Virus record (IMG/VR): IMGVR_UViG_2617270967_000014
Origin: a virus
Lineage: Duplodnaviria; Heunggongvirae; Uroviricota; Caudoviricetes
DNA: 40,547 bases
Reading direction: 5' to 3' (one strand)
Shown here: piece by piece, positions 18,001 through 24,000 of the stretch
Layout: each line of letters starts with the position of its first letter
How positions within the stretch are numbered: the first letter of the stretch is position 1
Program-made: the position numbers

Positions 18001-21000
18001 AGCATTCATCAAATGTTCTCCAGTTCGGTGATTTTTATCCCCACTCTACCGCCAGGCACTTTCACGCCGCGAATTACGCGAATGTCATCGAATTGCTCGT
18101 CGTCGTCCGCAAATCCGGCGTGGATAAGAGAGTCGAGTAAACCTTTCAGGATGTTATCGAGGTCGCGACGGCGGGAATCTGGTGGTTCAGCAATAATTGT
18201 GATGCGAAGTCGTGATTTAGTGAAAATGTCTAATCTGAGTTGCCGGATGATTTGCTGTACGTCTTTTCGGTATTTCTGGCCTTTATCGCTGATGTAGTAC
18301 TGGCTTCCCCGTCTTCGCCAGTAGGTATTCACCGTCGGCGGCCAGGGAAGCACAAACTCATATTCATTCATGACTTAATCTTCCCCTCCTTCAGCAATAT
18401 CGCCTGCGTCCTGATCACGCCTTCCAGGTGGTAAAGTCTGGCGTCGTTGTTGTCGAGAATTCGGGTGCGTCGGTCGATCTCCGCGTGGCAGTCACTACAA
18501 GCCCATGCACCGATCAGGTCGTCAGGCTTCATTCCCGTTCCGCAAATTCCAGCCATCCGGTAATGTGCCAGAACTGTCGTTTCAGGATTGCCATTGCATA
18601 CGCCGTAAATCCGTACCTGGCATTCTCTGCCGCGCGCTTCTTTGCGTAGGTTAGCCATTAAGCAGCCTCCCCTGTTACTTTCAGCATTCCGTTATCGAGC
18701 GGCTTTCTGGTCAGCCACTGTTGACCACGCCCGGTGATTTTTGTGGTGAACGAGATCTGTATTCCGTGATTTGTATTGACCGCTGTTTCTTTCACTGTGA
18801 AATAGCCGCGATCCATATATTCCTGCATTGGCACATTGCGCCGGGAACCTGAAGCAATAAGGATTTTGTGATCGCGCATCCACGCAAACAGTTTGTTTGG
18901 ACCAATACCAACAACCTTTGCAAAGTTTCCAATCAAAATTCCGCTGGCCTCGCCAACTCGATCGGCAAACTCAACTTTAGGTGCTGCGAGAGCAAGCTGT
19001 TTCTCCAGTTCAGCCTTCTGGTCTTCAAGGTCGGCCGCAAGGCGCAATGCCTCAGAAAAGGTTTGTGGTATTTTCGCGGTTGCCCCTTCAAGCTCTCGCC
19101 AACGGTCAACAAGACGAGCGGTGAATTCCGGCGACAATTGGGCGACGACAATAATGCTGTCTCGCTTACCTTGTTCGCCTTCGAAGACGTAAGCCTCGAC
19201 ACTACGGCGCAGTCCTAAGTTATTGATTTTTTCGAAAACCTGCAATGCAGGAAGTTGAATAACTCCAGATTCAGCCAGGCGCTCTATTGATATTTTTACG
19301 TTATCTGGACGACTCCCCACCAACTCAGCGATTTCAATGCTGGTCATTTTGATGATGCTGCTATTTATCAGCTCATTCATTGTCATGTCCTCTCATATTG
19401 AAAATTCAGCAATAAAAAACCCAGCCGAAGCTGGGTTTGTTAAGTTGTCAATTGTCAGTAGCGATGCAGTGAAGGCGGCAACTCTTTGTTCTTAAGCCTT
19501 TCCCATGCCAGAAGGTTCGTCGGCCCGTCAGGCTCATAAATATCTATATCCCGCGTGTGATTAATTAAAACGCCCCTCGCCCTCCCGATGATATACGAGA
19601 ACTCATAGCCGTAGTCGTGGCATATGCCGGAATAGCCAGACTGAATCAGTTTTAATGCGGGATACAACTCACGGAACAATGCCTGTGAGCGGTTGGCATA
19701 ATCCCACAGCCATACAAGGCTGTCTGTTTCTTTTGCGGAAAGCCCGTTGGGCTTCTTCTCTTGTTTGCCAGTATTTTTCTCGCACTGGCTGAAATAGCAG
19801 TCTTCCAGTTTTTCGAACACATCCCACGCCTGATCGGTTTCTAGCATTTTGGCGTGACGGGCTGCGCCTCGTTCTGTCCAGAGGATGAGGGAGCGAACGT
19901 TACGGGCAATTTTCACAGAGTAGTTAAAAGCTACTCTGTGCTTGAACTCACGTAAAGTTTCACCTTCAAGTTTGAAGAAGTGTTTTTCCTCAATGAAACG
20001 ACCTTTGTTTTCGTGGTGATTCTGGCGAATACGAATAGCTTCTGTGCCGTAAAGGTGCGCCAAAAGTTCGGTAGTGATAACGGGGATCTGCTTGTAAGTA
20101 ATCGTGGAGAGTGTTTCAACAGAGATTTGAGTTGTCATAATGACGCCCTCGAGTGGTTTCTTAATAACTCACCACCGACGACGCCAATCGTCTGGTGGTG
20201 AACTGTGCAGGGTTGGCGTAACCGGGAAACCGACCGGCGCGGATCTCTCCGCCCCCACACAGCCCACCATAATTCAGATGTGCGCGTGCATACGACAATA
20301 AAAAACACGCTCGCGGCGTGTATCTGTCGCGGTCTCTATCCAGGACGCCAATCCCGACGCCAGATTTTGCTGGCGCGTGAGGAATATAGCCCCGAATAAA
20401 TCATCACGTCAATCACCTTGTTTTCCTCGCACGATGTCTTAGCCACCGGATATCCCACAGGTGAGCCGTGTAATTGAAGGCTTTAACGTCAGATTCTTTT
20501 GGGATTGGCCTGGGTTTATTTCTGGAACGTTTCGTTGGAAGGTAATTGCAGTTTTCACAGACTATATCGGTAATGCTTCGTCGCTGTCGTCTCATTCATA
20601 CCTCCTGTCGGTAAATCTGACACCCTGCTCCACAGCCCAGGAAGTTGTGTACTCAATCAGGCTTGCCATACGCTTCACGCTCATCTGCGCACTGCTTTCG
20701 CGGATATTGACGTATTCACCTTCAAGACCAGGCAAAACATCAGCTTCCTGTTTTGTCGCCACGGCATGACCGCTGATTAACAAAACTTTCCACTGTTCTG
20801 GTTTTAGCCATCTGCCGCACCACTGAACCTGTCGGGAGATATCAGCGACCATCGCGTGAAATTTGGCATTTTGATCGAGATTCCGCTTGTAATCGGTGAT
20901 GCGGATCGTAACGGGTTTGTCTTTATCGAGAGTTGTTGCAAGGATGGCGTTAATGGCGAATTGTTGCTGCTGCTTACTTCGGAGGAAGATAGTCTGGTTC

Positions 21001-24000
21001 ATTATTCCCTCTCACTGGATTTTCCCAACAAAAAAGGAGCCGAAGCTCCTTTAGTTTCAGAATTCAAATTGTCTTGCCCGCAGGCTTTTCAGCATTGGCA
21101 TGGCCCGCTGGATAACGGAACTTGACATGTCGAGACGTGTTACCTCCCTCAGTAGCGCGTCTCTGTTCTTCGTCACCATGTAGATGGTCTCAAACGCAAT
21201 GTCATACAGCTTGTTCGTGTATGAGGAGTTCAGCTCTTTCATAATGGGATACAGGTGTTTGCTGATGTCCTGGGCTTTTTCCATCCAGAGCTGCATGTAG
21301 CAAAGGAGGATGATTTCTTCGGCTGTGAATTGTGGCTGAATCTGCGGCTGCTGTTCGGTTGGTGCTGTTTTTCCCTGGCTGAAATAGCAGTCTTCCAGTT
21401 TTTCGAATACCTCCCACGCCCGATCGGTTTCGAGCATTTTTGCGTGACGGGCTGCGCCGCGTTCTGTCCAGAGGATGAGGGAGCGGGCATTTTTACCAAC
21501 TAACCCGATTGTTTCGGGTCTGTTCTTAAACTCGCGTAATTCGTTTTTTTCAATTTTAAAGTAATGCTTTCCGGGCATGAATCGCGTCGTGTTGTTCAGA
21601 AAGTTATCAGAAATGTTTTTGATTTTTGTTCCGTAAAGGTGAGCCAACAGTTCAGTAGTAATTACGGGGATCTGGTTATAGGTAACAGGGGAAAGGTTTT
21701 CGACAGAAATTTGAACAGCCATAATGACCTCGCGTTTCGATAATTTTTACCTCGCCACCGTCAGGTGCTAATCATCGTGGTGGCGAACTGTGCGGGGTTA
21801 GCACTACCGGTCGAAACATCCGGCGAGCCTTTCGGCTCCCCCACACAGCCCGCCATAAATCGCGAATGTGACTGTGCTTAGCGCATAAAAAAACCGCCAG
21901 CGCGGTTATGCACCGTTTCGATATCCGGGGTGCTAATCCCGACGCCAGGTTTTGCTGGCGCGTGAGGAATATAGCCCCGAACACGCGACGTTGTCAAACT
22001 GATGGCATTGCAGATCCCTACGCAATGTAACACTATGTGTTATACATTAATAACGGAACAAAAAATGCGCATTTTTAAAAACGCCTGGTTTGAGCGATTT
22101 GCACGCAAAACAAAATATCCGACCAATCACTGCGCGAAATTGTTAAACAGGCTGATAACGGGCTTATCTCAGCAAACCTGGGTAACGGCGTTATCAAGCA
22201 ACGTCTGCCACGAGTCGGTGGCGGCAAATCTGGCGGTTATCGCACAATCATTTTCTATCGCGTCGGCACAAGGGCCTTTTTCGTATATGCATACGCAAAA
22301 AATGAACGTGAAAATATAACCGCTACTGAGGAAAGTGCATTTCGGAAGGGGCTCCTCACGTACTCAATCTAACAGATGAACAACTGGCACAACTGATTCT
22401 ACAGGGTCAGTTTACGGAGGTACCCAATGAGTAAAAATTACCGCAGTGATGCGCTTGCATCCGTACATGAAATGATGGAATCGCTTCATGATATCGGCGC
22501 AGTAACGAAACAGACTATGCGAGAATTCGATGAAACTTGTCTCCAGCCAGCGCCGGTAATGTCTCCGGAAAGGATCCGTGCACTGCGCGAACGAGAGCAT
22601 CTGTCTCAACCTGTTTTTGCCAGATACCTCAACGTCAGTAAAAACCTGATATCAGACTGGGAACGTGGTGTAAAACGGCCGGGAGGTGCCGCTCTTCGCC
22701 TTCTTTCAGTCGTAGAGAAAAACGGAATCCAGGTAATATCATGATACTCCAATACAACAAACCCCGCCGAAGCGGGTTTTCATTAGAAGCACCTTTAGTT
22801 TTGCTGTTCTATTTTAAGCTTGATAGTTTCATACAAAACAACAGTTGCGCCTGTTTTACATAATTCCCGGCCGTCATACGCACGAGACCAATAACACAAC
22901 CAGTTCTCGAGATCTTCTCGAGTATAGGTTTTGCAGGCCAGTCCCTCTGCCATTTCCACGATTTCATCGCCTGGTGCTGTTAACTCATAGCCATTCAACA
23001 ACAAGAAGACATAACCAGCCATCATAGCTGTTCGTTTGTTTGCATTAGCAAATGGATGATTCTGAATCAGACTTTCAATCAATACTGATGCCAGTACAAA
23101 CATGTCATTAGTCTGTTCATACCATCGAACCATGCTGGGACGAGACTGAGAAGAACTTAAATTATCAACACTCAGCACACTAACAGGTTCATCTGGTGTT
23201 TGAAGCTCAATTAAAAGGCGATTAATTTCGGTAAGATCATCAAACGAAAGGTAGTGCACTCCTTCAACAATATCAGCCATAGAGCACAATACCCATCATT
23301 ACACTTTTGAAAGTTCTTCCATTGCCTTCTCGTAACGAGAAAAACCGAAATCGAAAGCATTTTTCACCTGCTCACGATGAGTGCAATTTTCATCGATAGC
23401 CGGGCGCGGAGCTGCCACAACGCTTTTATCGCGAGGGGGAATAGTCAATCGCGGGTGTTTTTTTAGTGCGTAGCTCATTGGGTGTACCCTTACTTCTCCG
23501 TCCTGTTCTTTAACAAAAATCAAGTCAATACAAAATTAGTCAGGCTAATGTTGTTAGCATAGCCTAATACCAATCGTATTCACAACCACAGTAAGTGAAA
23601 AAACCCGCCGAAGCGGGTTAAGTGCGGGTGCGTTGAGGATGCCTGACACATCAGAGGTGGCGAGGGATTTCTCCCTCGCCTGGTCTCTTACTCCTCAGGT
23701 TCGTAAGCTGTGAAGACAGCAACCTCCGTCTGACCGGTTCGGATTCGTACCTCGCAGAGGTCTTTCCTCGTTACCAGTGCCGTCACTACGACGGTAATAC
23801 AGATGACGATCAGGGCGACTAACATCGCCTTTTGCTGCTTCATAGCCTGCTTCTCCTTGCCTTTCGGCGCGTAAGAGGCTAACCTACATGTGTCTAGCAT
23901 GAAATTGGCCTCAGATTAATGTTAGGCGTCTTGCAGGACGCGTAATGTTAACTGGGGTTTTTCTCTGTCTGCCTTACGGTGGCATGCCCGAGGCAGACAG

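Follow-up and report, generated by a model that had tools for sequence, protein, structure and literature searches.

We found that a lambdoid Escherichia coli prophage, represented by a 40,547-nt stretch of DNA (IMG/VR virus record IMGVR_UViG_2617270967_000014, hereafter the window), carries two leader regions that are very probably complete RNA immunity cassettes of the type known from the immI locus of phage P1, sitting in the nin region and each keeping an antirepressor gene off through a C4 antisense RNA. Both cassettes lie on the minus strand (cassette A, 20139-20412; cassette B, 21723-21997), to which coordinates below refer unless stated otherwise, and each precedes a gene for an ORF6N protein. 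The gene order is a RelE/helix-turn-helix (HTH) pair, cassette B, ORF6N gene B (21057-21722), ninB, ninE, cassette A, ORF6N gene A (19455-20138), a KilAC-type Ant gene, ybcO, rusA, ninH and Q. Judged by sequence, cassettes A and B are copies of an immunity device that has already been described, as the C4 system of P1 and P7 and as the IsrK locus of Gifsy-1. An earlier reading of the window made by eye (the sequence-only reading) had proposed that antirepressor-like genes are regulated by a structured RNA that shows covariation and is encoded on the same strand as they are, and to that extent it was right; because the same three covariance models match in the same order in P1 immI and in Gifsy-1 isrK-anrP, what it saw amounts to a rediscovery of a described system.

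The two upstream regions, each about 290 nt long, align from end to end with 82% identity, as had been claimed for them. An Rfam scan of the window at the curated thresholds placed the same three families in each copy, in the same order and all above their gathering scores: c4-a1b1 (RF03163, gathering score 46.7) with 50.5 bits at 20337-20389 in copy A and 47.4 bits at 21922-21974 in copy B, isrK (RF01394, gathering score 50) with 75.5 bits in A and 74.3 bits in B, and C4 antisense RNA (RF01695, gathering score 45) with 66.7 bits at 20191-20274 in A and 75.1 bits at 21776-21860 in B. The E-values for these RNAs, between 1e-9 and 1e-14, are far past chance. The covariance-model search that the sequence-only reading had suggested as a check thus returned three known families per copy, and by every membership test that sequence allows the RNA parts belong to the C4, c4-a1b1 and isrK families. 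The cassettes are textbook phage immunity RNAs that curated models recognise directly.

Each cassette opens with its own near-consensus sigma-70 promoter, and the two were the best sites of the region in a promoter scan. The promoter of cassette B (21968-21997; -35 TTGACA at 21992-21997, 18-nt spacer, -10 TATATT at 21968-21973) has 11 of 12 matches and corresponds in position to P1c4/P51b of P1 and PisrK of Gifsy-1 (PMC4825925); that of cassette A (20383-20412; -35 TTGACG at 20407-20412, 18-nt spacer, -10 TATATT at 20383-20388) has 10 of 12. The near-identical 5' block that had been read as the start of the RNA leader is present together with its CGCCAG/CTGGCG hairpin, but it begins at the -10 hexamer, so only part of it is RNA: it comprises the -10 element, the start site and the first hairpin of an IsrK-type small RNA (sRNA). 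The predicted IsrK-A (20300-20376) and IsrK-B (21887-21961) have a common layout, in which an element a1 is displayed in the loop of the second hairpin and is followed by an element b1 and an intrinsic terminator. In IsrK-A these are a1 UUGGCGU (20345-20351), b1 GAGACCG (20330-20336) and a terminator at 20300-20321 that ends in U6; in IsrK-B, after hairpin 1, they are a1 UUAGCAC (21930-21936), b1 UCGAAAC (21915-21921) and a terminator at 21887-21907 that ends in U7. The terminator scan found each of the two individually, and their stems differ between the copies as the sequence-only reading had noticed.

Downstream of the terminator, each cassette encodes a C4 RNA whose predicted mature form, with ends placed by analogy with the annotated c4 RNA of P1, spans 20194-20268 in C4-A and 21779-21854 in C4-B (5'-GG...CCACC-3'). 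Folded alone, both are predicted to form a closing stem of 16 bp, a hairpin with a GNRA loop, another hairpin that loops out an element b', a single-stranded junction that contains an element a', and ACC as the 3' tail; neither b' nor a' is paired. For C4-B (b' GUUUCGA at 21811-21817 in the hairpin-2 loop, a' GUGCUAA at 21798-21804 in the junction), the minimum free energy (MFE) is -48.6 kcal/mol (z = -6.6) and the MFE fold equals the family fold; for C4-A (b' CGGUUUC at 20226-20232, a' ACGCCAA at 20213-20219), it is -44.0 kcal/mol (z = -4.5) and the family fold makes up 79% of the ensemble. The conserved stretch atggYgggctgtgtggggg had been noticed without its pairing: it is the 5' strand of the closing stem, whose partner strand is CCCYGCACAGTTCRCC, and Y and R covary. 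The AU|GG and CCACC motifs are invariant in the C4 homologues, P1 included. The GNRA hairpins listed earlier (GCGGA-GAGA-TCCGC and GAGCC-GAAA-GGCTC) are there on the minus strand, as is the CCACC/GGTGG stem, and the CCGG palindrome forms a hairpin in both copies, although its spacer is the reported nine nucleotides in B and eight in A.

The complements of a' and b' occur at fixed positions both upstream and downstream of each C4, where they form, respectively, the a1/b1 elements of IsrK and a second pair, a2/b2, just before the antirepressor gene. In cassette B (target region 21728-21771), a2 UUAGCAC (21765-21771) lies between the strands of the CCACC/GGUGG stem, b2 UCGAAAC follows at 21734-21740, and the Shine-Dalgarno (SD) sequence GAGG is at 21728-21731; a1 and a2 are identical, as are b1 and b2, and a2 and b2 are exact 7-nt complements of a' and b'. 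In cassette A (target region 20146-20187), a2 UUGGCGU (20181-20187) equals a1, b2 is GAAACC (20155-20160), and the SD is GAGGG (20146-20150). Pairing between a' and a2 extends over all 7 nt in both copies, and that between b' and b2 over 6 nt in A and 7 nt in B. No other pair of a and b sites, that is, no C4 target besides a1/b1 and a2/b2, was found elsewhere in the window. The long-range stem of the sequence-only reading (ACGCCAA/TTGGCGT in A, GTGCTAA/TTAGCAC in B) is the recognition element a' paired with its target a2, and that target occurs twice per copy, in the upstream hairpin loop and downstream of C4. The copies do differ at three of the seven a' positions with matched changes, which are found in both a1 and a2; this compensatory change points to selection on pairing. 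The b' loops differ as well, and here a second covarying set had been missed, namely hairpin-2 loop CGGUUUC with GAGACCG and GAAACC in A, and GUUUCGA with two copies of UCGAAAC in B.

Covariation is not confined to these two copies, a point on which the claim of a structured RNA had been made to depend, but is abundant among homologues. We scanned viral contigs for a conserved 14-mer and then used nhmmer, which yielded about 70 homologous modules; a strict regular expression for C4 parsed 48 of 72 modules, and a relaxed version all but four. The 50 distinct modules with both flanks fall into 23 (a', b') classes, built from 8 variants of a' and 19 of b'. In an alignment of 22 representatives including P1 (alignment A2), a':a2 and a1:a' are each standard-paired in 154 of 154 cells, with five of the seven pairs changed on both sides, whereas slid controls pair in 20-50% of cells. 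The intramolecular helices are paired in 89% of cells and 23 of their 44 pairs covary, a result reached by none of 500 shuffles. Among these helices, the C4 closing stem is 99% paired with eight covarying pairs, hairpin 1 is 98% paired with four, and the CCACC/GGUGG stem around a2 is 96% paired; C4 hairpin 2 (87%) and the terminator helix (only 36-54%) score lower through an alignment artefact of their variable stems. An alignment-free count over the 23 classes agrees with this: every cognate pairing (100%) has 6 nt or more at both downstream sites, whereas none of the 366 non-cognate pairings does.

Antirepressor families lie downstream of the RNAs both in the window and in ten of ten homologous cassettes, where ORF6N, Bro-N, AntA or Rha proteins are the cargo. 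In the window, ant-A (19455-20138) encodes 227 amino acids and ant-B (21057-21722) 221; both products carry ORF6N and P22_AR_C domains (Pfam) and fall into PHROG 377, 'anti-repressor Ant' (E = 3e-85 for A and 1e-81 for B), RefSeq names the former 'phage antirepressor Ant', and the two are 48% identical in pairwise comparison. The terminator scan placed terminator-like hairpins by ant-B (21033-21052) and between ant-A and the KilAC gene (19417-19438). This KilAC gene (18658-19386), directly after ant-A, is a third antirepressor gene that belongs to PHROG 63, the P1 Ant1 family; it lacks a dedicated RNA cassette, and its expression may rely on transcripts that read through from cassette A.

From these elements, and from what is known of related phages, the following course of events may be proposed. 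A constitutive-looking sigma-70 promoter would start transcription about 7 nt after TATATT, and most transcripts would end at the intrinsic terminator to give an IsrK-type sRNA that displays a1 (in a hairpin loop) and b1. Read-through transcripts would enter the C4-type RNA, then a2/b2 just upstream of the SD, and then the Ant-family antirepressor gene. If the cassettes behave as in P1/P7, RNase P would cut C4 from its precursor at AU|GG, and C4 would pair through a'/b' with a2/b2 and block ribosome entry; the untranslated ant mRNA would then be exposed to Rho, leaving the antirepressor off both in the lysogen and on incoming phages of the same code. If they also behave as in Gifsy-1, a1/b1 would compete for the C4 elements, either in cis (the silent 'structure A') or in trans as free IsrK, and the ratio of terminated to read-through transcripts would set the switch. 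On this analogy, C4-A and C4-B probably repress their own ant genes, with IsrK-A and IsrK-B as decoys in cis or in trans. Since A and B differ in both a and b sequences, they should form two separate, non-cross-reacting channels, each gating its own antirepressor; with three of seven positions different, we would expect no cross-reaction at the a element.

In P1 and P7, RNase P cuts C4 from its precursor at a GGW motif, after which C4 pairs with the mRNA, b' covering the ribosome-binding site and a' conferring specificity (PMC5320573, citing Citron & Schuster 1990 and Hartmann 1995); our statements about this mechanism rest on the P1 GenBank annotation, secondary accounts and general knowledge. 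The GenBank record of P1 immI annotates the promoter P1c4, a1, b1, a 77-nt c4 RNA, a2, b2, icd and ant. In Rfam, the P1 locus matches the same three families in the same order, with C4 at 68.8 bits and isrK at 35.1 bits, the latter below the gathering score of 50. The window cassettes and P1/P7 immI have in common the order of promoter, hairpin, a1, b1, terminator-like hairpin, C4, a2, b2 and start codon, as well as the C4 fold with its invariant AUGG and CCACC motifs; in both, an antirepressor is controlled, and a few a'/b' bases set specificity with matched targets. Indeed, in the alignment that we made of P1 and P7, the C4 RNAs differ by 2+2 nt with matched changes in all four targets, and four base differences make the two phages heteroimmune (PMC5320573; P1 annotation). 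The differences are these: P1 is a plasmid prophage, whereas the window is a lambdoid prophage with its cassettes in the nin region; in the window, C4 stands directly before the antirepressor without an intervening icd; the window Ant proteins belong to PHROG 377 and P1 Ant1 to PHROG 63; no C1 operator is known for the window cassettes; b2 lies beside the SD instead of over it; and one genome holds two differently coded cassettes.

Several points weigh against C4 repression as the function of the window cassettes. Promoter use, read-through, RNase P processing and repression in the window prophage are all steps that we infer. The b2 element ends 4 nt (A) or 2 nt (B) upstream of the SD, while it overlaps the SD in P1 and most homologues, so that direct occlusion may be weaker here. 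The b pairings of copy A are short (6 nt for b2, and 7 nt including one G-U for b1), the weakest of the sample, and the GUUUC/GAAAC core common to the b elements of A and B would allow some cross-talk. A simple comparison of duplex energies between C4-A or C4-B segments and their cognate or non-cognate targets showed no discrimination, because short G-rich flanks pair alternatively; we replaced it with position-aware counts of exact complements and column-wise pair counts. As to cargo, ant-A has no similarity to P1 Ant1 and the icd gene is absent from the cassettes, and a test for membership in the P1 icd-ant1/ant2 operon therefore failed: the RNA part belongs to the family and the cargo gene does not. 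Finally, the Gifsy-1 study emphasises activation by IsrK through a leader open reading frame (ORF) and not repression by C4 (PMC4825925).

The isrK-orf45-anrP locus of Gifsy-1 (RF01394; STnc1160) is the closest relative of the window cassettes. The two share the promoter block GGGGCTATATTCC, the a' sequence ACGCCAA (with copy A), the same three Rfam matches in the same order, and an ORF6N-type gene whose product starts MTTQIS. The Gifsy-1 cassette differs in that it is located immediately downstream of Q (antQ), whereas the window cassettes are upstream of Q; its leader ORF has 45 codons, compared with 33 and 31 in the window, where the ORFs end well before ant; its b' code is not the same; and isrJ gave no match at gathering score in the Rfam scan of the window. 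In Gifsy-1, transcription from PisrK yields the short IsrK as well as a read-through transcript, which is kept silent by pairing of the middle of IsrK with a region about 160-175 nt downstream (cis helix b-I), and IsrK acting in trans activates the antirepressor anrP (PMC4825925). This downstream region is the a' junction of a C4 RNA: the orf45/STnc1160 region (NC_010392, 34131-34214, minus strand) scores 69 bits as C4 antisense RNA, and its first AUG falls exactly at the annotated 5' end of P1 c4, where the literature places processing by RNase P. The authors of the IsrK study liken their locus to P4 CI and do not name C4 (PMC4825925). The scoring of orf45/STnc1160 as C4 thus links the activation model of IsrK with the repression model of P1.

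The most probable alternative is one in which positive control of the IsrK type dominates: the self-folded long transcript would be silent, free IsrK would open it, the leader ORF would be translated and the antirepressor switched on by translational coupling, with processed C4 in a minor role. We regard this as a possible but rather unlikely account of the window cassettes. Positive control has been shown experimentally in the homologous Gifsy-1 locus (PMC4825925); the AUG is kept at transcript position 107 in the window copies (window 20270); and the minimum-energy folds of both whole leaders contain a cis helix that joins the middle of IsrK to the C4 junction, as in 'structure A', in the same columns as the covarying a1:a' pairs. 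From this AUG, the leader ORF runs for 33 codons in A and 31 in B, leaving 30 and 38 nt between its stop and the start codon of ant; its length among homologues varies between 3 and more than 47 codons (14 in P1), with no conserved peptide, for which reason we rate translational coupling as secondary. Moreover, its AUG coincides exactly with the 5' processing site of P1 C4, and a2/b2 are conserved beside the SD in all 23 classes, as is predicted for the target of a repressor. A leader-peptide reading was likewise rejected, as the ORFs from the leader AUG are not conserved. Positive control and repression by C4 are not mutually exclusive.

The sequence-only reading had favoured an attenuator or antitermination element. 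Spelled out, this would be a cis-acting attenuator or processive-antitermination leader, transcribed from the pR operon upstream, in which N, Q or an alternative fold overcomes the terminator; we now consider this improbable. Each leader does contain a real intrinsic terminator, and N-modified polymerase would read through the cassettes, which lie within the pR-to-Q operon and in its orientation. Some evidence also points to helices that exclude each other: a single column of the 3' strand of C4 (CCACC) covaries with the 5' strand of C4 as well as with the GGUGG strand downstream, which indicates two alternative helices in the precursor and gives some basis to the earlier remark on alternative folding. 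The terminator hairpin, however, is intact in the minimum-energy folds of both whole leaders, and no conserved helix that competes with its stem was found; the covarying long-range pairs are the a and b elements, which join C4 to its targets, and an IsrK-family sRNA has its 3' end at the terminator. In addition, each copy has its own near-consensus promoter directly upstream, and the same cassette works in P1, a plasmid prophage without N or Q, and lies downstream of Q in Gifsy-1.

The possibility that a defective prophage holds the cassettes as inert remnants, conserved through recent acquisition alone, would accord with the rearranged look of the left part of the window, its truncated AntA gene and the weak b pairings of copy A, but it is the least probable account, given that both cassettes retain their promoter and terminator, the complete C4 fold, each of the four target sites and intact genes for 221 and 227 amino acids, that A and B differ by compensatory change, and that copy A is about 99% identical to the cassettes of many Shiga toxin (Stx) phages, both Stx1 and Stx2, that are inducible.

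Other small phage RNAs keep lytic or antirepressor functions off, among them P4 CI (seqA/seqC) and P22 sar (immI). P4 CI is cut out of its own leader and base-pairs with sequences that flank it on either side; it causes transcription termination of replication genes, and sar is a true cis-antisense transcript of ant. These RNAs are unrelated to the window cassettes, and neither was matched in the Rfam scan of the window.

The window stretch 19400-22100 is 100% identical in nine complete genomes, FORC_069 and ML35 among them, and related sequence is present in 2398 of 5426 complete E. coli genomes. Within our sample of modules, the code combination of copy B was seen only in the window. Several cassettes with different codes per genome are not unusual: one viral contig (L114, 1766-5113) has four tandem C4 cassettes, each before a Rha-family gene and with differing a'/b' combinations, two of which have a' in common and differ in b'. 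In APSE phages, a c4 and isrK pair has already been annotated; Tree et al. 2014 make no mention of C4/IsrK-type RNAs. The RefSeq record of identical sequence (NZ_CP023061, 3501-6201) has no RNA gene annotation for either cassette, its locus tags jump at the position of cassette A (RS13130 to RS13140), and most deposited phage records likewise leave the cassettes without RNA annotation. The practical value of the assignment is one of annotation; in the Stx phages, antirepressor control is relevant to induction of the prophage and to the release of toxin.

The left part of the window holds two further RNA loci, in tandem on the plus strand, that resemble the C4 cassettes in organisation. The sRNA-Xcc1 family (RF02221, gathering score 53) matches at 2803-2887 with 51.5 bits, upstream of an AntA-domain gene (2927-3211), and at 3335-3420 with 73.4 bits, upstream of a second AntA-domain gene (3461-4084). 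In the stronger copy, CUCGAAA, the complement of the junction sequence UUUCGAG, occurs on the upstream as well as the downstream side, and the complements of the hairpin loop are CCCAAAAG upstream and CCAAAGGA, which lies over the SD; the upstream complements precede a terminator-like hairpin. Like C4, sRNA-Xcc1 has a closing stem, two hairpins, a single-stranded junction and a 3' CACC, shows complementarity at four sites and sits before antirepressor-type genes, which made up eight of ten random genes downstream of this family. Unlike C4, it is described by another covariance model and Rfam puts it outside the C4 clan; the C4 model gave no match at E <= 0.1 on the sRNA-Xcc1 loci of the window. 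Across 93 classes from viral contigs, both downstream sites reach at least 6 nt in 70% of cognate and 2.1% of non-cognate pairings. The literature treats sRNA-Xcc1 as an integron- or virulence-linked trans-acting sRNA, and in the literature that we searched no link to C4-like immunity was found.

We consider the odds about even that this prophage carries four RNA-gated antirepressor cassettes of two architectures (C4/IsrK at 20139-20412 and 21723-21997; sRNA-Xcc1 at about 2700-2926 and about 3225-3460), that sRNA-Xcc1 is an unrecognised C4-like immunity RNA, and that both families use a combinatorial 'address code', with 23 classes for C4 and 93 for sRNA-Xcc1 in what are small samples. If so, such a code would let many co-resident prophages gate their antirepressors independently, and if the sRNA-Xcc1 observation holds, a puzzling sRNA family would be reassigned to phage immunity. 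The AntA protein of the second locus (3461-4084, plus strand) and the ORF6N protein of cassette B (21057-21722, minus strand) have their C-terminal 110 or so residues in common (P22_AR_C, 56% identity) behind unrelated N-terminal domains, which indicates domain shuffling among gated antirepressors. Next to these loci, an ORF that is open from the first base of the window (1-2397, plus strand) encodes a twin-arginine-type signal, MKAEISRRSLMKTSALGSL..., and resembles the gene for a molybdopterin oxidoreductase of the chromosome, so that the prophage or island boundary would be near 2400-2800, adjoining the sRNA-Xcc1 cassettes.

Just upstream of cassette B, a cluster of addiction modules occupies 22002-24012, with hok/sok (sok match at 23838-24012), a Fic/Doc toxin (22795-23289) and, on the opposite strand, the RelE-like/HTH pair (22002-22744). 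At the other end of the region, about 340 nt downstream of the Q antiterminator gene (17388-17921), an STnc100 sRNA match of 165 bits (16844-17049, minus strand) takes the position of the short pR' transcript of lambdoid phages, of the lambda 6S or StxS type.

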